NCBI GenBank assembly: GCA_944391055.1 | Contig: CALXSF010000005.1 | Span: 28,922 to 92,921 of the forward strand | DNA: 64,000 nucleotides | Reading direction: 5' to 3' | Origin: an uncultured Kiritimatiellota bacterium | Lineage (GTDB): Bacteria; Verrucomicrobiota; Kiritimatiellia; RFP12; DVOR01 | The notes under the pieces: generated by a model | Databases searched by the model: none | Seen by the model: the letters and a program-made list of their open reading frames with translations, nothing else | Told to the model about the DNA's origin: nothing | Shown: positions 4,093 through 54,789 of the stretch, one piece after another | Position numbering within the stretch: position 1 is the first letter of the stretch | Layout: each line of letters opens with the position of its first letter | Program-made: the position numbers and the translations under genes

Positions 4093-7000
4093 ATGCGGAG
4101 AAAACGTGCTATGACACACTTTGTGCGCTTTGCCATGGTCGGCGTGATTGTCGCCGGGGCGTCTTGTTGCGCCCTCGCGCAACAGCAGGACGACGACCTC
4201 GACTCCCTCTTGGAGGGGTTGATCGAAGAGCCTGCCGCGCAGCCGGAAAAGCCGGCCGACAAAGAACCGGCCGCCGAGCCTGACAAACCCGCCGAACAAG
4301 TGGCCGACGAACCCGCCGGGAACCCCGCCGTCAAGCCGGCAGGGCAAGAGGCCGAGGTGGCCGTCGGGAACCCCGCCGTCAAGCCGGCGGGCCAAGAGGC
4401 CGACGCGCCCGCCGGGAATCCCGCCGTCAAGCCGGCGGGGCAGGAAGCCGTCGCGCCCGCCGTGGCCAAGGAGGAGCCCGCCGCCAAGGAGGAGCCCTCT
4501 GCGGACAAGGAAGAGCCCGCGGAGGAACCCGCCGAGGAGCCTGCGGTCGCCGAGGAGCCTGCCAAGGAACCCCAGGCTGAGCCGGCCGCCGAGCCCGCGG
4601 CCAAAGAGGACGGTCTTTTGGCCGATTTGGACGGCGACACCGCCGCTTTGGACGCGCTGACGGATGAGGATCGCGCCCTGAACGAGTTGGAAATGCTCAT
4701 CCGCCTCAAGAACCAGGGGCTGGACGTCCAAGCCACCGCCTGCCTCCGCAAGGCGCGTCAGCTGATGACCAAGGCTCCCGCCCCCGGGAAAGCCTTTGAG
4801 CAATATCAGGCGGCCATCAAGATGTACATGGACGCGAAGAAATATTTCCGCGAACATGAGGCCAACCTGCCGCTCAAGGCGGAGTGCGACGCCGGCATCC
4901 GCGAAGCCCGTTACCGTCAGGCGCTGACCCTCTTCCAGGACGACGAGTATGCCGAGGCGCTCGATCTCGCCCAGCAGGTGTTGCGCGAAGGCCATCCCCA
5001 GGCGGCGGCCTTGGTCGCCCAGATCCAGGAAGAGATGAATCGTCCGCCGGAGATCCGGCCCACGCCCGTCCTGCCCGAATACGCGCAGGAGGACTACCAG
5101 GCCTCCCGGCTGGCGGTCATGGAGCGCATCAAGCGGGCCACCGTCTATTACCACCTCGCCAAATACAAGGAGGCCAACGATCAGTTGGAGCTCGTGCTCC
5201 GCGACGATCCCAACAACGAGGCCGCCATCAGCCTCCGCGCCCGCATCAACCAGCGCAAGGATTCCCGGGATCGTCAGCTTCAGGCGTCCACCCATGACGC
5301 GATGATCGATGAGGTCTCCCTCAACTGGACCCCGCTCGGCGCCCTTGGCCGCGACTCCGAGGAGCTCTACGCGCCGACCGTCACCTCCGGGGCCAAGGCG
5401 CCCGTCGATGACGCGGGCCAGAAGGAGGCCCAGGCGGTCCTCGCCAAGCTCCAGTACATCCGCCTCCCCGAGTTCTCCATCCGTCCGCCGAGCACGCTCG
5501 CCGATGCGGTTCAGATGTTCGCCGAGATGTCTCGCGCCTATGACAAGCCCGAGCTCCCCCCCGAGGAAAAGGGCGTCTCCTTCGTGTTGAACATGGGCAC
5601 CAACAAGGCCGCCTCCGCCGAGGCGTCGGCCGAGGCCGACCCCTTCGCCACCGACAACACCGCCTCCTCCGGTGGGCTGCCGCCCATCCAGAACATCAAC
5701 CTGACCTACGTCACGCTCAAGGACGCGCTCGACATGGTCTGCGAGGTCACGGGCTCCAAATACATCATCCGCGGCAAGACCGTCGTCATCGTCCCCAATT
5801 CCTATGTCGAGGGCGAGATGGAGACGCGCACGTACAACGTCATGAGCGGGTTGCTCGAGAAGATCAGCGGCGTGCAGTCCGACCTTCAGGCGTCCTCGTC
5901 CTCCTCCGGGTTCGGTGACGGCAGCGACGACTGGGGGAGCATCGGCTCCGCCTCGCTCGAATCGCCCAGCGCCGGCACCACGCCCGAGATGCTCAAGAGT
6001 TTCTTCCAGGAATTGGGCGTGAACTTCGATGGCAATGCCCGAATCGCTTACCTCTCCTCCATCGGCAAGCTCCGCGTCACCAACACCCCCGAGAACCTCG
6101 CCCTGCTGGAGAGCCTGCTCGAGGAGCTCAACGTCACGCCCTATCAGATTGAGGTCGAGGCGCGCTTCGTCGAGGTCAGCCAAGAGGATCTCAACTCCCT
6201 CGGTTTCGAGTGGCAGCTGAACAGCGACATCGTGGGGACCGTCGGTTCCGGCATTGACTGGTCGTCCTCCCACATCCTGGGCAACCCGCAGGGCGGCAAC
6301 TCCGCCGGCGGCATCGGCGCGGGCGGTTACCATGTCTTCCGCAACACCTCTCTGGGCGGCACGGGCGACGCCAACGTCGCCATGCACGGCGGCTCCTTCA
6401 ACAATGGCATGCGCTTCCTTGGCGATGAGACCACCTATGCCAACCGCATCAACCTGAGCGACGCCACCCTCGCGCCCAACGACGAGTTCGCCTCCTTCTC
6501 CGCCGTCTTCGGCAAGATGGATATCACCATGATCCTCCACATGCTGGCCCAGCGCACCGACACGGACATGCTCTCCAGCCCGAAGGTGCTTGCCCGCCCC
6601 GGCCAGGAGGCCATGATCCGCGTCGTCACCGAATGGATTTATCCCACGGAGTTCGACGTCCAGGAACTCGAAGAGGCCGACAACAATTACGACGGCGACA
6701 ACTCCGTCATCGGCGGCGGCGGTGTGCAGGTTCAGGCCCCGCCCGTCAAGTTCGCCGTCGAGCCGCAGTCCTTCGAGAAGCAGGATGTCGGCGTCTCCCT
6801 CCAGGTCATCCCCGAGGTCTCCCAAGAGGGGCAGATGATCAACCTGCTTGTCAATCCCAAGGTCGTGGAATACCTCGGCGACTTCGAGTATGGCATGCAG
6901 GTGCCCTACATCCAGTACGGTATGACCGGCGGCGTCGTCACCTCCGCCTCCGTGGAATACTATCAGGTCTCCATGCCTCAGCCGATGTTCCACTTCCGTG

Positions 7001-16228: not shown

Positions 16229-18703
16229 TCACTCGTAACGCAGCTGGGCGGTGGCGGCGCAGGGGGCGGAGGCGCGGAAGCGGAGCCAGTAGCCGTCGAG
16301 GTCGGAGAGGTCAACGGCGAGGGGCTTGCCGGCGGGGACGGCGTAGGTGGCGTAGGGGAACCAGACGCCGGTGCCGGTGAGGTCGACCTCGAGGGTGAAG
16401 GCGACGGGCCTCTTGGCGTCGTGGGCGAGGGTGAGGGCCTTGCGGTCGAAGCCGGTGAGGAGGTAGGGGTCGGAGGGCTCGCCGGCCTTGACGGGGGTCT
16501 TGAGCCAGGGGCCGCCCTGGCCGCGGGGCTTGCCGAAGGCCCACAGGTCGTCGATGGCGCCGACCCAGACGGCGGCCTTGCCGTCGTCGGAGCGGATGAC
16601 GTGCCCGTCGGCGGGGGCGTCGGGGCGGACGCCGGTGAGGACGAGGAGGCCGCGCCAGGAGGCGAAGTCGTGGATCTGGGCGTTGTGGGCGGCGATGGGG
16701 CGGACTTTGGCGAAGCCGCCGGCGTTCTCGGCGGGGAGCTCGTAGAAGAGGCCGCAGAGGTTCAGGAGGTCGCGCTCGGTGCAGACCTCGCGGCAGACGC
16801 GTGCCGGGCCGAGGGGGCCGGGGCGGTCGAAGGCGGCGGAGGCCTTGGGGAAGCGCCAGCGGCGGCCCTTGTCGTCGACGAGCAGGGCGGAGGCGGCGTC
16901 GACGCTCACGCCCGTGCCCTCGGTGGGGATGGCGTAGTTGGCCTTGGCCCAGGCGGGGTTGTCGGGGAGGCGGCGGAGCGTGAGGTCGGGGGTGAGCTCG
17001 TAGAGGCCGACGTCCTCGGGGCCGTCCTTCCCGGCGCGCATGGCCGCGAGGCCAAGGGTGCCGAGGCGTTCGCCGCGGACGTAGGGGAGGCCGCCGAGGG
17101 CCTGCGCGCCGCCCACGCGGGCGAGGCCGTCGAAGCGCGTGTCGGGGCGCGTGCCGCGCGTGTCGGCCTTGGCGTATTGGAAGTAGGCGGTGACGCCCTC
17201 GGCGTCGCGCCCGGCGGTGAGGCGGAGCCAGGCGCCGCGGAGGGCGGAGAGGTCACAGCGGGTGGCTTGGTTGGGGGGGACGTCGAGGGTGCCGACCTTT
17301 TCCCAAGTGCCGTCGCCCTTGGCGTCGACCTCGAGGGTGACGGCGAGGGGCTTGTCGCCGCGGTGGGCGAGCCAAAGGGCGCGGCGGTCGTAGCCGTCGA
17401 GGAGGTAGGGGTCGGAGGGCTCGCCGGCCTTGACGGCCTCGTCGAACCAGAGGGCGCCGCGGCCGAGGGCGGGGCCGAGGGCGGCGAGCTGGTCGGGGCG
17501 GAGGAACCAGAGGTTGGAGTTGGATTGGCCGGGGCCGCGGATGGCGCCCTTGGCGCGGCGCTTGTTGTAGAACTCGTTCTTGGCGGTGTCGTCGCAGCCG
17601 AGGACGACCCAGTCGCCCCAGCGGCAGAAGTCGCCGACGACCTTGACGGTGTTGGAGAGGGGGCGGATGCCGGCGGAGGTCTTGGAGGTGAAGGTCTTGG
17701 GGAAGCGCCAGAAGGTGCCGTGCATGGTCATGAGCAGGTCGTTGCCGAGGCCGATCTCGCGGATTCGGGGCCATTCGGTGTTCCAGCCGTGGGCGCCGTC
17801 GTAGCTGTGGCTGCCCTTGGGGAGGCGGTAGGTGTGCCATTGGCCGCCGTCGAGGGCCATGAGGATGAGGGAGCGGTAGTCCCAGCCGACGCTCCAGAGG
17901 GGGTCGTCGGGGGAGGCGTTGCCGAGGATGCCGCCGGGGCCGGTGACCTCGGTGAACTGGTTGCGGCGGACGACGCGGAAGTCGGGGCGGCCGTCGTCGC
18001 GGAGCCCGCCCCGCCATTCGGCCAGGACGCCGGAGGGGGTGGCGGGGTCCCACTGCGCGCGGGCGGCGGTGTCGCCGTTGTTGGCGTAGACCACGCGGCC
18101 CTGGGCGGTGTAGGCGCCCTTGCCGTGGTAGCCGGGGAGGAGGGTGCCGGCGTGGCTGCGCGCGCCGGGCTCGCGGTTGCCGTCCACGTTGAGCTCGCGC
18201 AGCGCCAAGGTGCGGACGTCGATGTCGTAGAGGCCCTCCTCCATCGTGGCGTAGTAGAGGCGGTTGGCGGGGTCGGTGAGGTGGCGCATGTTGGCCGTGA
18301 GGCGGCCGTAGATGGGCTTGCCGGGGCGCTTGGGGTCCTTGGGGACGCGGACGCCGCCCTTTTTGTCGATGACGTAGGGGCCGATGAAGAGCTGGCGGGA
18401 CTCGCGGTGGATCATGCGGTTGGCGGGGGTGCCGCCGATGCTTTCGGGGCGGATGATCTGCGTGAGGTCGGGGGTGATCTGGTAGAGCTTGTCCGAGGAG
18501 CCGTCGGGCTCGTGCGGGGCGTAGGTGACGGCCCAGAGGCTGCCGGCCCAGGGGACCACCGCGCCCGTGCCGCATTCGCCCTCGTCGTTGAACATGGCCA
18601 GGTGCGGGTAGATGCCGCTGACGAAGGGTCGCTTGGCGGCCTCGGCCGCCGTGGCCGCGCCGGCGCCGAGCAGGGCCAGCGCGCAGAGGAGGAGTCGTTT
18701 CAT
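16229..18703 (-). CDS. Secreted hypothetical protein (824 aa) with an internal duplication of a ~400-aa unit
   Basis: Signal peptide (MKRLLLCALALLGAGAATAAEA). Two homologous halves, e.g. KAGEPSDPYLLDGYDRRALWLAHRGDKPLAVTLEVDAKGDG and KAGEPSDPYLLTGFDRKALTLAHDAKRPVAFTLEVDLTGTG. No family recognized. The GC-rich antisense ORFs on the plus strand are artifacts. Confidence 0.6.
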   Translation of the reverse strand: MKRLLLCALALLGAGAATAAEAAKRPFVSGIYPHLAMFNDEGECGTGAVVPWAGSLWAVTYAPHEPDGSSDKLYQITPDLTQIIRPESIGGTPANRMIHRESRQLFIGPYVIDKKGGVRVPKDPKRPGKPIYGRLTANMRHLTDPANRLYYATMEEGLYDIDVRTLALRELNVDGNREPGARSHAGTLLPGYHGKGAYTAQGRVVYANNGDTAARAQWDPATPSGVLAEWRGGLRDDGRPDFRVVRRNQFTEVTGPGGILGNASPDDPLWSVGWDYRSLILMALDGGQWHTYRLPKGSHSYDGAHGWNTEWPRIREIGLGNDLLMTMHGTFWRFPKTFTSKTSAGIRPLSNTVKVVGDFCRWGDWVVLGCDDTAKNEFYNKRRAKGAIRGPGQSNSNLWFLRPDQLAALGPALGRGALWFDEAVKAGEPSDPYLLDGYDRRALWLAHRGDKPLAVTLEVDAKGDGTWEKVGTLDVPPNQATRCDLSALRGAWLRLTAGRDAEGVTAYFQYAKADTRGTRPDTRFDGLARVGGAQALGGLPYVRGERLGTLGLAAMRAGKDGPEDVGLYELTPDLTLRRLPDNPAWAKANYAIPTEGTGVSVDAASALLVDDKGRRWRFPKASAAFDRPGPLGPARVCREVCTERDLLNLCGLFYELPAENAGGFAKVRPIAAHNAQIHDFASWRGLLVLTGVRPDAPADGHVIRSDDGKAAVWVGAIDDLWAFGKPRGQGGPWLKTPVKAGEPSDPYLLTGFDRKALTLAHDAKRPVAFTLEVDLTGTGVWFPYATYAVPAGKPLAVDLSDLDGYWLRFRASAPCAATAQLRYE

Positions 18704-21969: not shown

Positions 21970-24477
21970 TTATTTGGCGACGACGTTGACGAGTTTGCCG
22001 GGGACGACGATGACTTTGGCGATGGTGAGGCCCTCGGTGTGGCGCTTGACCTCGGGGGCCTCGCGGGCGGCGGCCTCGAGCTCGGCGCGGCCCAGGCCGG
22101 CGGGGAGGGTGACCTTGCCGCGCATCTTGCCGTTGACCTGGAGGACGATCTCGATGGCGTCTTCCTTGAGGGCCTCGGGGTTGACGGCGGGCCAGCCGGC
22201 GTCGAGGACGGAGCCTTGGCCGCCGAACTCGGCCCAGATTTCCTCGGCGATGTGGGGGGTGAAGGGGGCCATCATGCGGGCGAGGGTGACGATGGTCTCG
22301 CGGAGGAGGGCCTTGGCGGCGGGGGCCGAGGCGGCGTCGAAGCGGGCCTTGTCGAAGGCGTTCATGAGCTCCATGAGCTGGGCGATGGCGGTGTTGAAGC
22401 GGAAGCCGTGCTCGATGGCGTCGGTGACGCCTTGGAGGGTCTGGTGGAGCTTGCGCCAGAGGGTGCGCTGGGCGGGGTCGAGGGCCGCGCCGTCGACGGG
22501 GGCGTCGGCCTCGGGGACGAGGGGCTTGGCGTCGTAGGCCTTCTTCCAGAGGCGGCAGAGGAAGCGGTAGGGGCCCTGGATGGCGGTGTCCTGCCACTCG
22601 GCGTCGAGCTCGGGGGGGCCGATGAAGAGGGTGTAGAGGCGGACGGTGTCGGCGCCGTAGGCCTCGATGAGCTCGTCGGGGGAGACGACGTTGCCGACGG
22701 ATTTGGACATCTTCTTGAGGACGCCGTTGCCGTCGCGCTTGCAGATCATGCCCTGGGTGAAGAGGGCCTTGAAGGGCTCGACGCAGTCGAGGGCGCCGGC
22801 GTCGTTGAGGATCTTGACGACGAAGCGGGAGTAGAGGAGGTGGAGGACGGCGTGCTCGACGCCGCCGATGTATTGGTCGACGGGCATCCACTTGTCCACC
22901 AACGCCTTGTCGAAGGGCGCCTGGTCGTTGCGCGCGTCGATGTAGCGCAGGAAGTACCAGCAGGAGCAGAGCCACTGGGCGAGGGTGTCGGTCTCGCGCT
23001 TGGCGGGGGCGCCGCACTTGGGGCAGGTGGTGTTGATGAAGCCTTCGTGGCGGGCGAGGGGGTTGCCCTGGTCGCTCTTGAAGTCGACGTCGTCGGGGAG
23101 GCGGACGGGGAGCTGGTCCTCGGGGACGGGGACGGCGCCGCAGTGGGGGCAGTGGACGATGGGGATGGGGGCGCCCCAGTAGCGCTGGCGGGCGACGTTC
23201 CAGTCGCGGATGCGGAAGTTGGTGGTGAAGGCGGCGAAGCCGTGGTCGACGCCGTGCTGGGTGATGGCCTGGATGGCCTGGCGGTTGGGGAGGCCGTCGA
23301 AGGCGCCGGAGTTGACGAGCACGCCGTCGTCGACGTAGGCGGCGGTCATGGCGGCGGGGTCGAGGGGCGCCTCGGGGTTTTGGATGACGAGCTTGCGGGC
23401 GATGCCGTACTTGGCGGCGAAGTCCCAGTCGCGCTGGTCGTGGGTGGGCACGGCCATGACGATGCCGGTGCCGGAGTCGGCCACGACGTAGTTGGTGACC
23501 CAGAGCTCGATGTCCTTGTCGCCGCTGTAGGGGTTGGTGACGTGGAAGCCGGTGAAGACGCCCTCCTTGGCGAGCGCGTCGGAGAAGCGCTCGGCGGCGG
23601 GGATGTTGGCCAGGCGCTCGCGGAAGGCCCGCACCTCGGCCTCGCGCGGGGAGCCGGGGAGCAGCTTCTCGAGCAGCGGGTGGTCGGGCGAGATGGCCAT
23701 GAAGGTGACGCCGAAGATGGTGTCGGGCCGCGTGGTGTAGACGGGGCATTCGTCGCCGGTCTCGGTGACCGTGAAGGTGACCTTGGCGCCCTGGGACTTG
23801 CCGATCCAGTTGGCCTGCATCTGGCGGACCTTCTCGGGCCAGCCCTCGAGGAGGTCGAGGTCCTTGAGCAGGCGGTCGGCGTAGCGGGTGATGCGGAAGA
23901 ACCACTGCTTGAGGTTGCGCTTCTCCACGGGGCGCCCGCAGCGGACGCAGTGGCCGTCGGCGGTGACCTCCTCGTTGGCGAGGTTGGTGCAGAGGGGGCA
24001 CCAGTTCACGGGCGCCTCCTTCTGGTAGGCCACGCCCAGCTTGTAGGCCTGGAGGAAGACCCACTGCGTCCACTTGTAGTAATCGGGGTGGCAGGTGGCG
24101 ATCTCGCGCGACCAATCGTAGCCCACGCCCCAGCTGCGCACCTGGCGCTTCATCTCGCGGATGTTCTCGATCGTCCACTTGTGGGGGTGGACGTGGAACT
24201 TCTTGGCGGCGTTCTCCGCGGGCAGGCCGAAGCTGTCCCAGCCCATGGGCGAGAGCACGTTGAAACCGAGCATCTTCTTGTAGCGGGTGATGACGTCGCC
24301 CATGATGTAGTTGCGGCCGTGGCCCACGTGCATGTGGCCGCTGGGGTAGGGGAACATCGTCAGGCAATAGAACTTCGGGCGGGAGTCGTCGCGCGTGTCG
24401 CACGCGAAGGTGCCGTGCTCATCCCAATACTTCTGCCACTTGGGCTCGATCGCGTGAAACGGATACTTCTCTTCCAT
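21970..24477 (-). CDS. leuS: Leucyl-tRNA synthetase
   Basis: HIGH-class motif ([15 protein letters not shown]) and KMSKS ([10 protein letters not shown]). 835 aa. N-terminus [20 protein letters not shown] is typical of LeuS. Confidence 0.95.
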
Positions 24478-24502: not shown

Positions 24503-24522
24503 GACGCAAGTATAGCACAATC
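24503..24522 (-). promoter_or_regulatory. Candidate leuS promoter with extended -10 (TGCTATACT on minus strand)
   Basis: The plus-strand gtatagcacaatcc reads ggattgtgctatac on the minus strand. It lies about 30 nt upstream of the leuS ATG. Confidence 0.4.
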
Positions 24523-28484: not shown

Positions 28485-30626
28485 TCACTTCGTCTCGCCG
28501 GGCGACCACTCATCGGTGATGGGGCCTCGGCGGCCGGGGGCGTAGATGGGCCGGGCGGTGATGGGGGCCGCGTGGTGGCTCTCGGAGCCGTCGCGCGGGC
28601 CGTCGGCCTGGGTGCGGGCCCACCGCTGCGCCACGGGTTTGGGGCGGCGCGGGGGCTTGTCGGCGGCGGGGCGCGCCTCCTCGCGGCGGCCCTCGCCGCG
28701 GGGGCGGAAGCGGGGCTCGCGGACGGGGCGGATGTCCTGCTTGGCGGGCGCGGGCGCGGGCTCCTTGGCCTCGGGGGCCGCGTCCTTGGCCTCGGGGGCG
28801 GGCGGCTCCTGCGCGGGGGCGGGGGCCTCGGCGGCCTCGGGGGCGGCGGGCGCGGGCTCGGCGCGCTCGCGGCGGTCGCGGCGGCGGCCGCGCGGCGCGG
28901 GGGCGGGCGGCTCGGCGAACATCCAGTCCTCGGGCATGGTGCACTTGAGCGGCTCGTTGATGTACGCCTCGATGTCGGGGATGATGAAGCTTTCGTCCTC
29001 GTCGGCGAAGGAGATGGCGGTGCCGGTGTGGCCGGCGCGGCCGGTGCGGCCGATGCGGTGGACGTAGTCCTCGGGCTCGTAGGGGAAGTCGTAGTTCACG
29101 ACGTAGGCGATGTCGTCGACGTGGATGCCGCGCCCGGCGACGTCGGTGGCCACGACGATGCGGATCTTCCCGGCGCGGAAGTCCTCGAGGATGCGCAGGC
29201 GCTTGACCTGGTTGACGTCGCCGGAGAGCACCTCGCAGGCGATGCCGCGGCGGCGGAGGTTCTCGGCGAGGCGCTCGGTGGTGAACTTGCGGTTGCAGAA
29301 GATGATGGTGCGGGCCTCGGGGTTGCGCGCCAGGTGGTTGTAGAGGAGGGTGAACTTCTCCTCGGCGCGGGCGATGTAGACGACCTGTCGGACGGTGTCG
29401 GTGGCGGGCTTGTCGGCCTCGATCTCCACACGCATGGGGTCGCGCATCCACATGGCGGCCAGGTTCATGACCGTGTCGTTGAGGGTGGCGGAATAGAGCA
29501 TCGTGCAGCGGTGGTCGCGGTCGGGCAGGCGGTTGACGATGGCGCGCACGTCGGGGATGAAGCCCATGTCGAGCATCCGGTCGGCCTCGTCGATGACCAG
29601 CGTGTCCACCTGCCGGAGGTCGACCACGTGGGCGCGCATGTAATCCTTCAGCCGCCCCGGGGTGGCCACCAAGAGATCCACGGGCGCCTCCTCCAGCTCG
29701 CGGCGCTGGCGGTCGTAGTCCATGCCGCCGTAGACGGCCAGGGAGCGGACGTCGCCGCAATACTTGCCCAGCGCCTCGGCGTCCTTGCAGATCTGGATGA
29801 CCAGCTCGCGCGTCGGCGCCAGGATGAGGGCGCGGGGCGTGCCGGGCTTCAGGTTGCGCTTCTCGGGCGTGCGGAGGTACCGCGTCAGCACGGCGATGAG
29901 GAAGGCCGCCGTCTTGCCCGTACCCGTCTGCGCGCGCCCCGCCACGTTCTTCCCCTCCAGGGCGAAGGCCAGCGACTGCGCCTGGATGGGCGTGCAGTAA
30001 CGGAAGCCCAGGTCGGCCACCGCGTGCAGGATCTCGCCCGGCAGGCCGAAGTCCACGAAGCGCTTCTTGCCTTCCTCCGGCGGCACGTCATAACTCGCCG
30101 GATCCCAGGCCGCGTGCGCCTCCGCGTACTCCTTCAGCTGCGCCTCCGTGAAGGCGCCGCCCGGGCGCGCGTGGCCGGCGGGGGTGTCCCTCGGCCCGCG
30201 CTCCGCGCGGTCGTCGCGGCCGCGTCCGCCGCGTCCCCTCCCGCCGCGGTCGCGGCGGCGCTCCCCGCGCCCCTCGCGCTCACGGCGCGGGGCGGCCTCC
30301 TGGGCCTCGGGCGCGGCGGGGGCCTCGGCGGCCGGCGCCTCCGGCGCGGGCCCCTCGCCGGGCTTGGCCGAACGCGAACGCACGGCGGGGCCGCGCCCCT
30401 CGCGCGCGCCTTCCGGGCGCGGGGCGCCCTCGCGGCGCTCGCCCTGCCGATTGCCCCCGCGGCCGCGGCCGCCGCGCCGGCGGCGGCGTTTGCGTTCCTC
30501 GCCGCCCTCGCGCGCCCCGTCCGCCTCCGGGCGCGGCGCCTGGGGTGCGCGCGCGGCCTGGGGCGCGCCGGCGGCGGCCCCGTCCTTCAGCCCGAGGGCT
30601 GACTTGATCTTGGAAAGAAGACCCAT
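28485..30626 (-). CDS. DEAD-box ATP-dependent RNA helicase with RG-rich N-terminal and basic/acidic C-terminal extensions
   Basis: Q-motif, AQTGTGKT (motif I), VIDEADRMLD (DEAD), SAT and HRIGRTGR (motif VI) all present. 713 aa. Confidence 0.85.
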   Translation of the reverse strand: MGLLSKIKSALGLKDGAAAGAPQAARAPQAPRPEADGAREGGEERKRRRRRGGRGRGGNRQGERREGAPRPEGAREGRGPAVRSRSAKPGEGPAPEAPAAEAPAAPEAQEAAPRREREGRGERRRDRGGRGRGGRGRDDRAERGPRDTPAGHARPGGAFTEAQLKEYAEAHAAWDPASYDVPPEEGKKRFVDFGLPGEILHAVADLGFRYCTPIQAQSLAFALEGKNVAGRAQTGTGKTAAFLIAVLTRYLRTPEKRNLKPGTPRALILAPTRELVIQICKDAEALGKYCGDVRSLAVYGGMDYDRQRRELEEAPVDLLVATPGRLKDYMRAHVVDLRQVDTLVIDEADRMLDMGFIPDVRAIVNRLPDRDHRCTMLYSATLNDTVMNLAAMWMRDPMRVEIEADKPATDTVRQVVYIARAEEKFTLLYNHLARNPEARTIIFCNRKFTTERLAENLRRRGIACEVLSGDVNQVKRLRILEDFRAGKIRIVVATDVAGRGIHVDDIAYVVNYDFPYEPEDYVHRIGRTGRAGHTGTAISFADEDESFIIPDIEAYINEPLKCTMPEDWMFAEPPAPAPRGRRRDRRERAEPAPAAPEAAEAPAPAQEPPAPEAKDAAPEAKEPAPAPAKQDIRPVREPRFRPRGEGRREEARPAADKPPRRPKPVAQRWARTQADGPRDGSESHHAAPITARPIYAPGRRGPITDEWSPGETK

Positions 30627-30699: not shown

Positions 30700-30745
30700 G
30701 AAAAAGGGGCGACGTCCTCCTCTGAAGACGTCCGCCCCCCTTCGG
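30700..30745 (-). terminator. Candidate rho-independent terminator of the rplM-rpsI operon
   Basis: Minus strand reads ggggcggacgtcttcagaggaggacgtcgcccc followed by tttttc. Located about 40 nt downstream of the rpsI stop. Confidence 0.45.
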
Positions 30746-30782: not shown

Positions 30783-31175
30783 TTAGCGCTTCGAGAACTG
30801 GAAGCGGGCGCGGGCGCCGCGCTGGCCGGGTTTCTTGCGCTCTTTCATGCGCGCGTCGCGCGTCAGGCAGCCGGCCTTCTTGAGCACCTCGCGGAGGTTG
30901 GCGTCGAGGCCGCAGAGGGCGCGGGAGAGGGCGTGACGCATGGCGCCGGCCTGGCCGGCGATGCCGCCGCCCTTGGCGGAGACGAGGACGTCGTACTTGC
31001 CCGCCAGGTCGGTCATCGCGAAGGGCTGGTTGATGTAGGCGCGCAGGGACTCGCTGGGGATGTAGCGCTCCACGTCCACGCCGTTGACCGTCCACTTGCC
31101 CGTGCCGGAGATGAGGCGCACGTGCGCCACGGCGGTTTTGCGGCGACCGGTCGCCTTGGAAAGTTCGTTGGCCAT
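30783..31175 (-). CDS. rpsI: 30S ribosomal protein S9
   Basis: Ends ...[10 protein letters not shown], the S9 C-terminal signature. AAGGAG RBS 8 nt upstream of ATG (MANELSK...). The ORF-track start at 31202 is a short upstream extension. Confidence 0.9.
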
Positions 31176-31201: not shown

Positions 31202-31636
31202 TCAGATGCTCAGCGGCTCAGGCTTCTGGGCCGCGTGCGGGTGCTCGGCGCCCGCGTAGACTTTCAGGCGGGTCATGCGGATGTCCGCCGTGTTGTTCTT
31301 GGGGAGCATCCCCCAGACCGCGTGCTCGATGAGGCGCTCGGGGTTGCGCTCGCGGACGACGGAGGCGGGGGTCTTGGTCTGGCCGCCGCGCCACCCGGTG
31401 AAGTCCACGTACTGCTTCTGCTCGTTCTTCTTGCCCGTGAGCGCCACTTTCTGGGCGTTCACGACGATCACGAAGGCGCCCGTGTCCACCGACGGCGCGT
31501 AATCCGCGCGGTCTTTGCCGCGCAGCGCGTTGGCGACCTTCACGGCCAAGCGGCCGAGCGGCTTGTCCGCAGCGTCCACGATGTACCACTTGCGGCTGTT
31601 GTTGTCGGGCAACTCAGGGAGAGTCGTCTTGGTCAT
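31202..31636 (-). CDS. rplM: 50S ribosomal protein L13
   Basis: [31 protein letters not shown]... matches L13. 144 aa. The 232-aa ORF-track version extends into the 5' leader. Confidence 0.9.
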
Positions 31637-31863
31637 TGTCGTATACCCTGTCTTGTTGGTTCGTGCGCCTTGTCGGCCCGCCTTCGACGATCCGGAGGGC
31701 TTGGGCGCCCGTCGTGCGCGGGTTCTGCCGGGGCGGGGCACCAGGGAGTCTCGCGTGTCCCGCCAATCCCGCGCACAAGTCCCCATAAAATAGCACAATC
31801 GCCCGACGCATTGCAACCGCCCCGCCGCAGGTCGCATAAACGGATGGGCGCGGGGGCGGGGAA

Positions 31864-31900
31864 CGTGTTTGCGGGCCTCGTTTCCCGGACCGCGCCGCAA
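31864..31900. repeat. Dispersed copy of a 36-bp core motif (AACGTGTTTGCGGGCCTCGTTTCCCGGACCGCGCCG) shared with the rpoD-region tandem array
   Basis: About 34/36 identity to the cores at 51590, 51851, 51961 and 52071. It lies between the divergent rplM and gmd promoters. Confidence 0.5.
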
Positions 31901-31943
31901 GTCCCCCCGGACCGCGCCGCATCCCGGCCCCGGGGCGGGCGGT

Positions 31944-31974
31944 TTGCGCGGGGTGGGGCGATTGGGCTATAATG
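31944..31974 (+). promoter_or_regulatory. Candidate gmd promoter (-10 TATAAT at 31969-31974)
   Basis: gggctataatgg, then RBS AAGGAG at 31993-31998 and ATG at 32009. Weak -35-like TTGCGC about 19 bp upstream. Confidence 0.45.
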
Positions 31975-32008
31975 GCGGGGTATTCGGTTCATAAGGAGAA
32001 GAGGCTGT

Positions 32009-33043
32009 ATGGCAAAGACCGCATTCATCACGGGCATCACGGGACAGGACGGGTCGTATCTGGCGGAGCTGCTGTTGGGGAAGGGTTATGAGGTGCATGG
32101 GCTGATCCGCCGTTCCTCCAGCTTCAACACGCAGCGCATCGACCATCTTTACCAGGACCCGCACGAGGCGGGGGCGAGGCTTCACCTGCATTACGGCGAC
32201 GTGACGGACGCCGGGGGCCTCTGCCGCCTGATCTACGAGACCCAGCCCGACGAGGTCTATCATCTGGCGGCGCAGAGCCATGTGCGCGTCTCCTTCGACG
32301 CGCCGGACTACACCGGCGACGTGGTGGCGCTGGGCACGATGCGTCTGCTGGAGGCCATCCGCCTGACGGGGATGGGCAAGAAGACGCGCTTTTACCAGGC
32401 CTCGACCTCCGAGCTTTTCGGCAAGGTGCAGGAGGTGCCGCAGCGGGAGACGACGCCGTTCTACCCGCGTTCGCCTTACGCGGTGGCGAAGCTCTACGGC
32501 TTCTGGGCGGTGAAGAACTATCGCGAGGCGTACGGCCTCTTCGCCTCCAACGGCATCCTCTTCAACCACGAGAGCCCGCGCCGCGGCCCCACCTTCGTCA
32601 CGCGCAAGATCACCATGGCCGCCGCGCGCATCAAGCTGGGGATGCAGGAGAAGCTCTATCTCGGCAACGTGAACGCCTTGCGCGACTGGGGCTTCGCCGG
32701 CGACTACGTGGAGGGCATGTGGCGCATCCTCCAGCACGAGCGCGCGGACGACTTTGTCCTGGCCACGGGCGAGATGCACTCCGTCAAGGAGTTCTGCCAG
32801 GAGGCCTTCGGCCTGCTGGGCATGGACTGGGAGCGTTACGTGGCGCACGACCCGCGCTACGACCGCCCCGCCGAGGTGGAGCAGCTGCTGGGCGACCCCT
32901 CCAAGGCCCGCCGCGAGCTGGGCTGGGAGCCGAAGGTCACCTTCAAGGCGTTGGTGCGGATGATGGTGGAGGCCGACCTGGCCGTGGCGCGCCAGGAGGC
33001 CGCCGCCGCCAAGGAGGGCCGCGTCATCGAGCGCGCGGAGTGA
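32009..33043 (+). CDS. gmd: GDP-mannose 4,6-dehydratase
   Basis: [48 protein letters not shown]... is near-canonical Gmd. 344 aa. Confidence 0.9.
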
Positions 33044-49285: not shown

Positions 49286-51445
<2,160 letters not shown>

Positions 51446-51587
51446 GATCGGACTGCGCTCCTCGCTTTTTCCCTGCGCCGCGGCCGCTCGCCCACGGCGT
51501 GCTTGAAGGCTATAATTATACCAAAAGTAGCACATCGGCGGCCGCCCGTCAAGCGTTTTTTCGCGACCGCCCCGCCTTCCCCCAAAA

Positions 51588-51640
51588 ACGTGTTTGCGGG
51601 CCTCGTTTCCCGGATCGCGCCGCGTCTCCCCCCGAACCTC
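51588..51640. repeat. Isolated partial copy (core plus right flank) of the 110-bp repeat
   Basis: aacgtgtttgcgggcctcgtttcccggatcgcgccgcgtctccccccgaacc is identical to the core of the array units. Confidence 0.6.
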
Positions 51641-51810
51641 GCCGCACCCCGCCAAGACGGCAAGGCCCCGTCGCGGGATGATGGCGCGGCGGGGCAAAAC
51701 AATTTCCCCCCGTTGAAACGGCGCCTTGCGGCCCCGCCCGAGGGGATCAACACATTTATTATAGCAAAAGCCGGCCGATTGTGCCGTGTTTCGGATTGTG
51801 CGCGCCGCCG

Positions 51811-52172
51811 AACCCGCCCCGCCGCGCCGCGCGCCCCGTCCCCCGGCCAAACGTGTTTGCGGGCCTCGTTTCCCGGATCGCGCCGCGTCTCCCCCCGAAC
51901 CCCGCCGCGTCGCGACCCCGAACCCGCCCCGCCGCGCCGCGCGCCCCGTCCCCCGGCCAAACGTGTTTGCGGGCCTCGTTTCTTGGATCGCGCCGTGTCT
52001 CGCCCCGAACCCCGCCGCGCCCCGCCCCCGAACCCGCCCCGCCGCGCCGCGCGCCCCGTCCCCCGCCTAAATGTGTTTGCGGGCCTCGTTTCCCGGATCG
52101 CGCCGTGTCTCCCCCCGAACCCCGCCGCGCCCCGCCCCCGAACCCGCCCCGCCGCGCCGAACGGCTTCGGGA
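51811..52172. repeat. Tandem array of ~3.3 copies of a 110-bp non-coding repeat (~95% identity)
   Basis: Units start at about 51811, 51921 and 52031, with a partial unit from 52141. Each unit reads gaacccgccccgccgcgccgcgcgccccgtcccccggccaaacgtgtttgcgggcctcgtttcccggatcgcgccg(c/t)gtctc(c/g)ccccgaaccccgccgcg... There are no variable spacers, so it is not a CRISPR array. It lies between divergent rpoD (minus) and a secreted-protein gene (plus). Confidence 0.8.
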
Positions 52173-52212
52173 GGCTTGCGCAGGATGGCGGGCTTGTGCT
52201 ACGATAACCCCC

Positions 52213-53277
52213 ATGAAACGACATTGGAGTCTCTTTGCGCTTGGAGTGCTTCTCCTCGCCCCCTCGGCGTGGGCGGAGTTCGCGTACTCCGCTTATTTCT
52301 GCCGGGAGGCGCTGCTGGATGACGGCTCCACCCTTTCCTCGCTGCCGCTCGCTTATGCCGATGGCACGCCCGCGGCGGGGGAAACGCTGGCCTTCCTCTA
52401 CGTGGTGCCCGAGGCGGGCGTCGCGTTCACGGAGGAGGATTCGCCGCCCTTCACCTTTGCGTCCGATGGCACGGTGACGCTTGGGGAGGGGGCCGCGCGC
52501 GTCGTGTGGGCGGCCATGGGTGATGTGGAGTCGCCCAACCACGGCGTGGCCTTGGGGGCGGATGGGCTGCCCGCGTTGAACTATGTCAATGGGTTCGGTT
52601 TTTGCACCGCGAACTGGCCTGCCGAGGCGGGGGAGCCTCCGGCCACGGCCTATCTTTATGTAATCCATTTCGACACCCGCGCCGTCGACCCTGCCACGGG
52701 CGAGATGACGGTCGCCGCGCCCGTCGTTTCGGGGGACAAAGGGCCCGCCCCCCTCTCCGCGTGGGGCGCCACGCTCTGCGAGGTCTTTTCTTGGCCGACG
52801 ATGGGGCCCGGCGTGGCGGAGTATCTGAATCTGCCTTATGAGGGCGAGGGGAACGTCCGGCTGGCCGCCGCGGAGCAGCCCGTCGCGCCCATCACCGAGC
52901 TTGTCGTGGAGGGCGAGACGCTCACGGATCCCGACGCGATCGCGGCCGCACTTGCCCCCGCCGTCTCCGGTTTCGCCGCCGCGGAGGATGAGGAGGGCGA
53001 CCCGGTCTTCACGTTCAGTTTCGCTCCCGCGCGGGTGCCCGAGGCCACCACCTACACGCTTTGGACCTCCGACCGCTTGGACGGCGGGTGGATGACCTTC
53101 GACGCGCTCCTTCAACAAAAAGGGCTTGCCCAATCCGGCGGGGTGCGCTATACTAAGTGGCGTATTCAGAAGGAAGGGTCTGTGGCAATCCCGCGCCTTC
53201 CCGATGAGGACACGCGCTTTTACCGCCTTCGCGGCGACATCGACGTAGGAACGAACGAAAGCGTCAAAGGAGAATGA
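52213..53277 (+). CDS. Secreted hypothetical protein (354 aa)
   Basis: Signal peptide (MKRHWSLFALGVLLLAPSAWA). ATG at 52213 is 40 nt after the repeat array. No recognized domain. Upstream ORF-track residues are repeat-encoded. Confidence 0.5.
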   Translation: MKRHWSLFALGVLLLAPSAWAEFAYSAYFCREALLDDGSTLSSLPLAYADGTPAAGETLAFLYVVPEAGVAFTEEDSPPFTFASDGTVTLGEGAARVVWAAMGDVESPNHGVALGADGLPALNYVNGFGFCTANWPAEAGEPPATAYLYVIHFDTRAVDPATGEMTVAAPVVSGDKGPAPLSAWGATLCEVFSWPTMGPGVAEYLNLPYEGEGNVRLAAAEQPVAPITELVVEGETLTDPDAIAAALAPAVSGFAAAEDEEGDPVFTFSFAPARVPEATTYTLWTSDRLDGGWMTFDALLQQKGLAQSGGVRYTKWRIQKEGSVAIPRLPDEDTRFYRLRGDIDVGTNESVKGE

Positions 53278-53279
53278 CG

Positions 53280-54107
53280 ATGCGAAAAGTTATTGCAGTG
53301 TTTGCCGGGGTGGCCGTGGCCGGCCTCGCCCTCGCCGCCAACGTCACGACGGCCAATACCGCCGTGGTCGTCCGGAAGAACCCCGTGGAGAGCGCCGACG
53401 GCTGGCAGTTCCTCTGCGTCCCCGTCCGCGGCTTCGACATCACCGGCCAAGGGAAAGGGCTGGGCGTGCCGCTGAACGACGTGCTCCCCCCCGCCGATTT
53501 CCCCGAGGGAACGGAACTTCGGATTCAGGGCAACAGCACGGGCGCGTCCCTTGACGCCGAGGGTACGGCGGAACTTGCGCCGGACGGTGTTTACACCGTG
53601 GCGGAGTCTGGGGACGCTTGGCAGGTTTCGGAAGGCGGGACGGGTTCCGGAGAGGATTTGCTCAAGGCCGGTGCGTTTCTGTGGCTGAAGGTTGGGGGGA
53701 CGTCGGCTCCGAAGTTGCTGGGCGGTCTTTCGTTCGCCTTCGCCTCGAATACCGCCACCGAAACCCCTGTCACCACCTTCTGCGGGGAGCAGAACACCCT
53801 CGCCAAGGGGGAGACATTGGTTCCCGCCGAAACGGCGCCCGGCATGGTGGCCTACGGCAACGACACTGACACGGCGGTGGATGTTACTGCCGTTTGCGCC
53901 GAGCCGCAGGATGGCGACGAAATCCTGCGGATTAAAGACGGCGGCAAGGAATATCAATACTTGGAGTACATGAATAGCCGCGGACAATCTGGGTGGTATT
54001 ATTTCGGCACTAACGGGAAGGTGAAAATCCCCGAGACCCAGGGCGAATGGATTCGCACGATCGCCGCCGGCGAGGCGTTCTATTACTATCGTCGCCCGAC
54101 GGAGTGA
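53280..54107 (+). CDS. Secreted hypothetical protein (276 aa)
   Basis: AAGGAG RBS 8 nt upstream of ATG (MRKVIAVFAGVAVAGLALAANV...). A TATACT promoter-like element at 53161-53166 sits inside the end of the previous gene. Confidence 0.5.
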   Translation: MRKVIAVFAGVAVAGLALAANVTTANTAVVVRKNPVESADGWQFLCVPVRGFDITGQGKGLGVPLNDVLPPADFPEGTELRIQGNSTGASLDAEGTAELAPDGVYTVAESGDAWQVSEGGTGSGEDLLKAGAFLWLKVGGTSAPKLLGGLSFAFASNTATETPVTTFCGEQNTLAKGETLVPAETAPGMVAYGNDTDTAVDVTAVCAEPQDGDEILRIKDGGKEYQYLEYMNSRGQSGWYYFGTNGKVKIPETQGEWIRTIAAGEAFYYYRRPTE

Positions 54108-54147
54108 GCCATTATTTGGGAAAGTTTTCAGCAGCAAGGAGAAAGAG

Positions 54148-54789
54148 ATGAGAAAAGTTTTGTTTGCGTTGCTGGGTGTGGCGATTAGCGGGATGGTTTC
54201 TGCGATTACGTGTGAGTGGTCGTGGTCGTCCAATGGGAGTGCTTGGCAGTCCAATTCGGCTATTTACATGGTTTACTCGCAGGTCCAGTTGGATGCCGAT
54301 CAGGTGGTCAGTGCCGCCAATGTGTCTTATGGTTCTTCGGTAACGGGTGAGAAGAACAGCACGGGGGGAGCGTGGACGTCTCCGACTATGCCGGGATCCA
54401 ATACGATTGTGGTCAGCAGTCCGGCGACCAAGTCTAATACTGAGGCTGGGTCGATTCAGGGTAATGCAGGTTTCTCCGAGGGTAATTTCGTTTGGAACGA
54501 CAGTATGTTTGGGGAGGGCGGCGGTTACTTTTATTTGGTGATTTTCAACAGTACGAGCGCAGACACCGCCACGGAGTTTGCCGTCGCCCAAGCCGGGGAG
54601 AGCGGGCACTTGGTGAAAAATGGCAATGGAGTGGCCATTCCAAGGCCTGGTGAAGATCCTTTGCCAATCAACTACATCGACCCGGTTTGGATTGGCGGCA
54701 CGTTCCGTGATGCGGCGCCGGAGCCGACGGCGCTGGCGTTGCTGGCGCTGGGCGTGGCCGGGGCGGCGCTTCGCCGCCGCGTGCGCTGA
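54148..54789 (+). CDS. PEP-CTERM sorting-domain secreted protein (213 aa)
   Basis: RBS AAGGAGAAAGAG. Signal peptide MRKVLFALLGVAISGMVSA. C-terminal PEPTALALLALGVAGAALRRRVR is a PEP-CTERM anchor. Confidence 0.7.
   Translation: MRKVLFALLGVAISGMVSAITCEWSWSSNGSAWQSNSAIYMVYSQVQLDADQVVSAANVSYGSSVTGEKNSTGGAWTSPTMPGSNTIVVSSPATKSNTEAGSIQGNAGFSEGNFVWNDSMFGEGGGYFYLVIFNSTSADTATEFAVAQAGESGHLVKNGNGVAIPRPGEDPLPINYIDPVWIGGTFRDAAPEPTALALLALGVAGAALRRRVR

Follow-up and report, generated by a model that had tools for sequence, protein, structure and literature searches.

The ribosomal protein operon rplM-rpsI of an uncultured Kiritimatiellota bacterium lies on the minus strand of the 64,000-nt stretch of DNA analyzed here (the window; GC content ~70%), and a divergent intergenic region (31636-32009) separates it from the plus-strand gene gmd (ATG at 32009). 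The initial annotation of this region proposed that rplM has a long leader comparable to the L13 autoregulatory leaders of other bacteria, and that a core motif just upstream of its promoter, shared with an array beside the sigma factor gene rpoD, is a growth-rate control element common to ribosomal protein and sigma factor promoters. The locus raises the question of whether the leader and the motif are parts of a single control region. Sequence comparison points to a different answer, which we consider right with a probability of roughly three in four: the rplM leader is an L13/S9 autoregulatory RNA, and the motif belongs to a 71-nt element that is an independent, lineage-restricted dispersed repeat. 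The earlier interpretation was therefore partly supported, in that the leader idea holds and the growth-rate element does not find support.

The rplM leader is a conserved, covarying RNA structure

The predicted rplM promoter (31787-31816, minus strand) consists of the -35 hexamer TTGCAA (31816-31811), an 18-nt spacer and an extended -10 element, TGC-TATTTT (31795-31787). The extended -10 sequence TGTGCTATTTT at 31787-31797 is located ~145 nt 5' of the rplM ATG (31636-31634), which confirms the minus-strand promoter sequence TGTGCTATTTTA that had been placed there ~150 nt upstream of rplM. Transcription is predicted to start near 31780-31781, giving a 5' untranslated region (UTR) of ~145 nt.

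The rplM loci of relatives whose L13 proteins are 61-88% identical to that of the window were fetched for comparison. The leader was kept in 14 distinct Kiritimatiellae rplM loci, i.e., the window and 13 others, and in all of them the conserved block extends from just after the extended -10 element to the AUG. In every relative a -35 element, an 18-nt spacer and a TGnTAT sequence are found directly 5' of this block. The DNA 5' of the -35 element is unalignable among the relatives (L13 63-88% identical), yet conservation spans the predicted start to the AUG, and the upstream neighbor varies by lineage (gmd, a Gly-transporter-family gene, MarC, Ddl, PBP2 and others). The nearest L13 proteins carry Kiritimatiellae annotation. 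An L13 protein identical to that of the window occurs in 74 blocks of public assemblies (ENA metagenomes), and one of the loci (L009) shows no difference from the window across the 3 kb that were aligned with it.

Seven relatives, without the window, were used to evaluate a four-helix structure, with controls in which the 3' partners were slid by 1-3 columns. The structure paired 95.2% of the cells, compared to 37-48% in the slid controls, and 12 of its 30 pairs were compensatory, compared to 2-4. A covariance model (R1) made from these seven sequences was then searched against the window and 21 loci (331 kb, both strands). It matched the window at 31634-31781 with 95.5 bits (E 3.5e-25) and gave one match per rplM locus, always abutting the rplM start, and none elsewhere. 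The rplM locus L028, which was without a match, has an L13 protein 61% identical to that of the window and a 105-nt spacer before rplM. More distant loci scored 66.6, 45, 39, 28 (5' domain only) and 21.6 bits. In the model-guided alignment (A4) of the 14 distinct sequences, 94% of the cells were paired (37-50% when slid) and 22 of 30 pairs were compensatory (7-12 when slid). RNAalifold applied to a MAFFT alignment of 13 sequences recovered three of the helices, P1, P2 and P4, with 15 of 23 pairs compensatory, and the single-sequence minimum free energy (MFE) fold of the window leader contained the same four helices. These results show that the rplM 5' UTR is a conserved, covarying RNA structure that is found only upstream of rplM-rpsI in the DNA searched. 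As in a ribosomal protein leader, a structure supported by covariation lies between the promoter and the start codon of a ribosomal protein operon.

The structured leader, a candidate for L13/S9 autoregulation, occupies 31637-31781 on the minus strand and has two domains. In the 5' domain (31715-31775), which is supported by covariation and both helices of which appear in the MFE fold, P1 (31775-31768 with 31722-31715; 6 of 8 pairs compensatory) encloses P2 (31764-31754 with 31743-31732; 7 of 11). The P2 loop carries the octamer ACUCCCUG (31742-31749), identical in 18 of 18 aligned rows, and P2 is followed, before the 3' strand of P1, by the junction decamer CCCGGCAGAA (31723-31732), the columns of which are invariant in the alignment and in the distant loci. 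The P1/P2 junction is asymmetric, with AUU on one side and CCGGCAGAA (31731-31723, the tail of the decamer) on the other. The 3' domain (31665-31708), likewise supported by covariation, consists of P3 (31708-31703 with 31670-31665; 6 of 6 pairs compensatory) enclosing P4 (31698-31694 with 31682-31678; 3 of 5), which closes an 11-nt loop, GGAUCGUCGAA (31693-31683). The pattern of change is that of helices, as illustrated by GGCGGGACAC/GUGCCCCGCC in the window and GACAGAGUAC/GUGCUUUGUC in locus L013. Downstream of these domains, the ribosome-binding site carries the sequence ACAGGGUA (31644-31651), 7 nt upstream of the AUG. This sequence is invariant except in locus L027, which has ACAGGGCA, and the ACAGGG within it is invariant in every locus. 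The 5' domain, the junction, the loop octamer and ACAGGG were found in all members, including the most distant ones.

The leader is longer than those predicted at the other window promoters that were compared, in which the distance from the -10 element to the ATG is 7 nt (ATG 52213), ~35 nt (gmd), ~35 nt (leuS, ATG 24477, minus strand) and ~70 nt (rpoD P1). The gene starting at 24477 was identified as leuS by its Pfam tRNA-synthetase domains. A distance of only 7 nt from the -10 element to the ATG at 52213 implies that this mRNA would be leaderless or nearly so. A strict sigma-70 scan (TTGACA/TATAAT) gave no match in the rplM-gmd or the rpoD-side intergenic region, because promoters here have the form TTGCnn, an 18-nt spacer and TGnTATAAT, which is missed by a 9-of-12 rule. 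The window contains 4 instances of the motif TGTGCTAYNNT (0.08 expected), all of them preceding a gene, and 13 TGnTATAAT-like sites (1.55 expected). The promoters of this organism appear to follow the pattern TTGCnn, 18-nt spacer, (T)TGTGC-TAnnnT, i.e., an extended -10 element of the -16 TRTG type; examples are found at 24509-24519 (minus strand), 31944-31973 (plus) and 52176-52205 (plus). The second of these is the predicted gmd promoter, composed of TTGCGC, an 18-nt spacer and TATAAT, and its GGCTATAAT is one of the TGnTATAAT-like sites of the window.

The identities of the genes concerned are firm, as judged from protein family models. The products of rplM (31202-31636, minus strand; NCBIfam TIGR01066, 171.7 bits against a cut-off of 93), of rpsI, the second gene of the operon encoding ribosomal protein S9 (30783-31175, minus; NF001099, 170 bits), and of gmd (GDP-mannose 4,6-dehydratase; 32009-33043, plus; TIGR01472, 524 bits) all scored above equivalog cut-offs, and RpoD scored above the cut-off of its C-terminal domain equivalog.

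Candidate feedback regulation by L13

In Kiritimatiellae, the leader probably acts as a switch through which ribosomal protein synthesis is regulated by feedback, by analogy with E. coli, in which L13 represses rplM-rpsI translation autogenously via the leader (Aseev et al. 2016, cited in PMC7247131). Autogenous control by L13 is the most likely form of regulation because the leader is found only before the ribosomal protein operon and because L13 represses the same operon in E. coli. We infer the ligand, a pseudoknot and a translational mode of action, as follows. The operon would be transcribed from the extended -10 promoter (31816-31787, minus strand) with a leader of ~145 nt (31781-31637). 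Excess free L13 or, less likely, S9 would bind the 5' domain and stabilize a pseudoknot between the loop sequence CCCUG and CAGGG at the ribosome-binding site. The ribosome-binding site would thereby be sequestered, blocking translation initiation of rplM and, through rplM, also that of rpsI. The P2-loop CCCUG (31746-31742) is complementary to the CAGGG of the ribosome-binding site (31650-31646) over 5 bp in the window, and the pairing reaches 6 bp in loci in which the loop reads CCCUGU. The linker around ACAGGGUA varies, although the loop and ACAGGG stay invariant. The complementarity of the loop with ACAGGG suggests sequestration of the ribosome-binding site.

We also considered whether the leader is, instead of a protein-binding autoregulator, a metabolite riboswitch, a transcription attenuator or a coding upstream open reading frame (ORF). 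The ligand of the leader is inferred, which leaves room for a riboswitch, but Rfam riboswitch families gave no match and the leader was found solely before a ribosomal protein operon. Attenuation is unlikely, since no U-tract follows the P3/P4 hairpins in the window. As for an upstream ORF, the window leader is in frame with rplM and stop-free, and a 232-aa ORF (31202-31900, minus strand) extends rplM in frame across the entire leader into the repeat. However, the leaders of relatives contain stop codons as well as indels with lengths not divisible by three, which rule out the leader as an upstream ORF, and the substitutions in the helices are compensatory. The 232-aa ORF was therefore rejected as real coding sequence and is regarded as an artifact of high GC content. 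Taken together, we consider these alternatives very unlikely.

Several points weigh against autoregulation by L13 as set out above. The transcription start of rplM is a prediction, and the case for L13 as the ligand is one of analogy with E. coli. The partners of the pseudoknot never vary, so that covariation is uninformative on that pairing. In the most distant relatives (L026, L027 and L029), the 3' domain is variable or another sequence takes its place. The folding energy of the leader is not better than that of shuffled sequences (z = 0.05), in a test of low power at 70% GC. Finally, alignment A4 was fitted to the model and leans to its structure, and the independent MAFFT-based counts agree with it.

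The leader differs from the L13 leaders already on record. A search of the whole window with Rfam 15 at the gathering score gave no matches, the L13_leader family (RF00555) and the other L13 leader models included, and a permissive search (E<=10) of 31500-32100 found nothing but a chance match to CRISPR-DR65 (clustered regularly interspaced short palindromic repeats) of 19 bits. When the E. coli rplM region was searched with model R1 and all filters switched off, only noise was obtained (at most 2 bits, E 7, in the leader). Hence, the proposal of an L13-type autoregulatory leader stands as far as a conserved, covarying structure is concerned, and no resemblance to the Rfam or E. coli L13 leaders was found.

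Two loops of the leader provide a possible link to ribosomal RNA (rRNA); leaders of this class often, though not necessarily, resemble the rRNA site to which their protein binds. The P2-loop octamer and the P4 loop resemble E. coli 23S rRNA at 2784-2791 (UCUCCCUG) and 2811-2823 (GGAACGUUGAAGA), which correspond to the 3' strand of H94 and to H99/H100, in domain VI. Protein uL13 has been placed against 23S domain VI, next to H97/H98 (PMC4671574, PMC7758197). Co-resemblance of this degree was seen in 1.5% of dinucleotide shuffles, for motifs picked post hoc and compared with E. coli rRNA, and the 2784-2823 region is only moderately conserved in the bacterial consensus. Mimicry of rRNA by the leader loops, compared with E. 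coli 16S and 23S rRNA, is suggestive but weak.

A DEAD-box RNA helicase gene (28485-30626, minus strand; RhlB/SrmB-like, scoring under equivalog cut-offs) follows rplM-rpsI in the window. An intrinsic-terminator-like hairpin with a T-run (30711-30732, minus strand), detected by a terminator scan, is located 3' of rpsI and stands between rpsI and the helicase gene. The order rplM, rpsI, DEAD-box helicase was constant in all Kiritimatiellae loci fetched (L009-L030), even in L028, where the leader is missing. In E. coli, the rplM 5' UTR contains hairpins sensitive to the DEAD-box helicase SrmB, which acts there (Iost & Jain 2019, PMC6736130). The leader might mimic the uL13 site of 23S domain VI and work with the helicase encoded after rplM-rpsI, a combination that we regard as unlikely. 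If true, helicase-modulated L13 feedback, for which E. coli SrmB is the one known case, would represent a module that is either ancient or the product of convergent evolution.

A dispersed 71-nt repeat at divergent promoters

The motif shared between the rplM promoter region and the rpoD-side array is real. It forms part of a 71-nt block (31862-31932, plus strand) made up of a 28-nt core, AACGTGTTTGCGGGCCTCGTTTCCCGGA (31862-31889), and two sub-repeats spaced by 22 nt. The second half-repeat that had been noticed next to the core was likewise found, since CCCGGACCGCGCCGC occurs twice (31884-31898 and 31906-31920) at a spacing of 22 nt. Block identity revealed four further copies on the plus strand (51587-51657, 51850-51920, 51960-52030 and 52070-52140), to which the first copy is 82-87% identical over 71 nt. 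The last three form a 110-bp tandem array, with units 93-94% identical, between rpoD (minus strand) and a secreted-protein gene (plus strand, ATG 52213). The 20-mer GTGTTTGCGGGCCTCGTTTC has five exact copies in the window, all on the plus strand (31865, 51590, 51853, 51963 and 52073), and none is expected.

Outside the window, the exact core was found in two Kiritimatiellaeota metagenome-assembled genomes, along with one chance match in Solirubrobacteraceae, among genome representatives that exclude the source genome. A metagenome scan found it in five contigs of one assembly, three of which end at the repeat, as expected of a multi-copy element, and a scan of viral contigs with the core gave no match. 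Approximately 12 copies were compared. Across 12 copies, the core showed C-to-T changes at two positions only, and its first three bases read AAC, AAT or GGC. After the core come two or three degenerate sub-repeats, CCGRRNCRCGCCGY, which recur every 22 nt, and one subfamily carries a G-rich left arm. Outside the elements, the sub-repeat motif was not enriched (20 matches, 17 expected). The sub-repeats drift between species whereas the core remains perfectly conserved, which indicates that the core is recognized in a sequence-specific manner, either by a host regulator or by a recombinase or transposase.

All six repeat loci that could be assessed are divergent promoter regions. Loci L004 and L006 are the counterparts of the gmd and the secreted-protein loci of the window, and the other flanking genes encode a membrane protein and an ISAs1 transposase, a PEP-CTERM protein and a secreted protein, a pilin-like protein, and an aspartate aminotransferase. 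In the strain represented by L004, gmd is 99.5% identical to that of the window, and the DNA left of the repeat is unrelated from 31829 onwards. The 55 nt at its left end (1-55) had no match elsewhere in the sequences compared. This junction is either a rearrangement that kept the repeat with gmd or an assembly chimera.

The proposal that the motif is a growth-rate element, i.e., an upstream activating site through which one regulator would coordinate the rplM and rpoD promoters, predicts its presence at such promoters generally. It was absent from the rplM upstream region in all 13 of the other distinct loci, in which promoter and leader are conserved, and from ~230 kb around the rplM genes of relatives, species of similar GC content included. 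Within repeat-bearing genomes, it was not found at the leuS promoter of the window, which has the same extended -10 element, or at rpmE (encoding L31) in contig L005, which has its own promoter. With the repeat missing from the rplM promoters of relatives and from the leuS and rpmE promoters, the growth-rate hypothesis fails its own test. Furthermore, the repeat is found beside gmd and genes for secreted/PEP-CTERM, pilin-like, aminotransferase and transposase proteins, and its never-varying 28-nt stretch is unlike a typical degenerate operator.

Some observations nevertheless favor coordination of rplM and rpoD by such an element and, to that extent, count against the joint reading of leader and repeat as independent. 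The repeat has the same orientation at both genes and starts at nearly equal distances, approximately -82 (rplM) and -79 (rpoD P1) from the predicted transcription starts; the placement of all six assessable loci at divergent promoters hints at a promoter-related role; the core does not vary between species, unlike the drifting sub-repeats; and the 22-bp periodicity would put the sites on one helix face. At other leftward genes, however, the repeat starts at approximately -58, -68 and -98, and at rightward genes 84 and 108 nt separate the end of the core from the -10 hexamer. Such varying distances do not support a fixed-geometry activator site. We therefore consider a growth-rate element distinctly unlikely. 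The shared motif is best described, from its distribution, as a real but unrelated lineage-specific repeat that is not tied to translation genes and not part of the conserved rplM control region. The "growth-rate box" linking rplM and rpoD thus loses support, and a separate repeat family with an invariant 28-bp core is isolated.

As for what the repeat does, its candidate roles are those of a protein-binding module and of a self-propagating repeat. We rank a self-propagating or recombination-spread intergenic repeat first, followed by a regulatory binding module and then by an alternative promoter or RNA. The element is lineage-restricted and dispersed, with a core and sub-repeats of 22-bp period, and has been tandemly amplified beside rpoD. 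The first reading, to which we give somewhat less than even odds, is that of a repeat resembling repetitive extragenic palindromic (REP) sequences or miniature inverted-repeat transposable elements (MITEs), or of a solitary transposon end with sub-terminal 22-bp sites, tolerated at promoters. Consistent with it, the core is perfectly conserved while the flanks differ, the element is limited to one lineage, the 110-bp units are repeated in tandem with 93-94% identity, metagenome contigs break at the element, one copy adjoins the ISAs1 transposase gene, and the L004 DNA left of the element departs from the window at 31829. On the other hand, there are no terminal inverted repeats or inverted arms bracketing the repeat, no shared flank duplication and no REP-type palindrome. 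The consensus hairpin is weak (9 bp, -9 kcal/mol) and has no compensatory pairs, i.e., no conserved RNA structure. All copies in the window have one orientation, viral contigs gave no match, and the assessable copies are all in 5'-5' intergenic regions, whereas REPs are usually 3' of genes. As a REP sequence or bacterial interspersed mosaic element (BIME) in the strict sense, the repeat was rejected on the weak hairpin without compensatory pairs, the single orientation and the divergent 5' location, and as a MITE on the absence of terminal inverted repeats and of a target-site duplication.

We also examined the possibility that the repeat is an alternative-sigma promoter, either of the sigma-54 type (GG-N10-GC) or of the extracytoplasmic function (ECF) type (AAC...CGT), or a small structured plus-strand RNA directed toward gmd and the secreted-protein genes. 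GG-N10-GC with TTGC at -12 is present in 7 of 12 copies from five loci (e.g., AGGCAACGTGTTTGC in L002), counting L002 and L003, which are near-identical, and L004, which is the gmd-side copy of the window in another strain, and the rightward neighbors mostly have envelope or secreted functions. The GG is missing, however, in all four rpoD-side copies, including the one nearest to the downstream gene, and in L008, so that sigma-54 was rejected; the AAC-to-CGT spacing is 14 nt instead of the usual 16-17; and conservation peaks downstream of the would-be -12 element, unlike in promoters. The sole substitutions in the predicted plus-strand hairpin keep G-U or U-A pairs, as a structured RNA would, but no pair is compensatory and no Rfam match was obtained, except for a chance ar14 match (12.8 bits) in a permissive scan of 51400-52300. 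Single-sequence fold z-scores for the two strands (0.09 and -0.69) were uninformative. Altogether, an alternative promoter or structured RNA is highly doubtful. An ECF promoter and parS were rejected on sequence features. The rpoD-side array was rejected as a CRISPR array because the whole 110-bp unit repeats at 93-94% identity and leaves no unique spacers; the sole CRISPR-family Rfam match (31785-31817; 19 bits against a threshold of 43) lies outside the repeat and at a great distance from the array. Coding sequence was also rejected, in that long spurious ORFs run through the core on both strands, but their reading frame is not maintained and the flanking sequences differ.

Several features of the DNA around the rpoD-side copies deserve mention. 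A perfect extended -10 sequence, TGGTATAAT (51523-51515, minus strand), precedes the rpoD ATG by ~70 nt. A second one, TGCTATAAT (51766-51758, minus strand), is ~310 nt upstream and would read antisense through the repeat copy at 51587-51657. On the plus strand, GGCTATAAT (51508-51516) overlaps TGGTATAAT, which suggests a bidirectional promoter near 51508-51523. The secreted-protein gene at 52213-53277 (plus strand) is ~76% identical between the window and metagenome contig L006. The 144 nt upstream of it, comprising the last repeat and the promoter, are 95% identical, and 52138-52220 is identical. We read this as a fast-evolving surface-protein gene behind a conserved 5' region. Further secreted-protein genes follow in a run downstream of the array (53274-54789, plus strand); the product of one of them (54148-54789, plus strand) has a PEP-CTERM sorting signal and ends in PEPTALALLALGVAGAALRRRVR. 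Two other repeats in the window, a 48-nt tandem repeat of three copies with ~80% identity (4284-4462) and a direct repeat pair of 250 nt with 70% identity, 942 nt apart (16367-17558), probably sit inside coding sequence.

Comparison with known repeats and L13 leaders

The 71-nt element shares with REP/BIME and MITE repeats that it is short, non-coding, intergenic and lineage-specific and can break assemblies. Unlike these, it has no strong palindrome, terminal inverted repeats or inverted pairs, it is built of modules, with 22-bp sub-repeats after a 28-bp core, and it is found in divergent promoter regions. Upstream activating regions of the Fis/UP type are found at growth-rate-controlled promoters, i.e., rrn P1 and some ribosomal protein promoters of E. 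coli. The 71-nt element resembles them in its location at two expression-machinery promoters, where it lies at approximately -80 to -150, and in its helix-phased sub-repeats. It differs in being GC-rich and invariant instead of AT-rich and degenerate, in not being conserved at orthologous promoters, and in its presence at unrelated genes.

In the literature consulted, we found L13 leaders described for E. coli, Firmicutes and Bacteroidia and none for Kiritimatiellota or other bacteria of the Planctomycetes-Verrucomicrobia-Chlamydiae (PVC) group; for the phylum Kiritimatiellota, no ribosomal protein leader of any kind was found described. The E. coli rplM-rpsI leader and the leader reported here precede the same operon, each as a long 5' UTR with multiple hairpins after a sigma-70-type promoter, and share a presumed feedback by L13, which for the Kiritimatiellae leader is drawn from analogy. 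They have no sequence or structure similarity, and the Kiritimatiellae leader lacks a terminator-like feature. Structurally distinct L13 leaders have been predicted in Firmicutes and Bacteroidia (Eckert & Weinberg 2020, PMC7247131). The Firmicutes family (RF00555) and the Bacteroidia L13 leader are, like the present one, lineage-specific, located 5' of rplM-rpsI and found by comparative analysis, whereas the Kiritimatiellota leader has another architecture and belongs to another phylum.

Ribosomal protein leaders are the main feedback devices that balance the synthesis of ribosomal proteins and rRNA, and each leader that evolved independently is a natural RNA aptamer for a conserved protein. 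To the three L13 leader architectures described so far, in E. coli, Firmicutes and Bacteroidia, the Kiritimatiellae leader adds another candidate, with strong covariation, a compact conserved core (P1/P2, junction and loop) and a predicted pseudoknot at the ribosome-binding site. Judged by these features, it appears to be a new architecture within a known functional class, i.e., a structurally new candidate L13/S9 autoregulatory leader.

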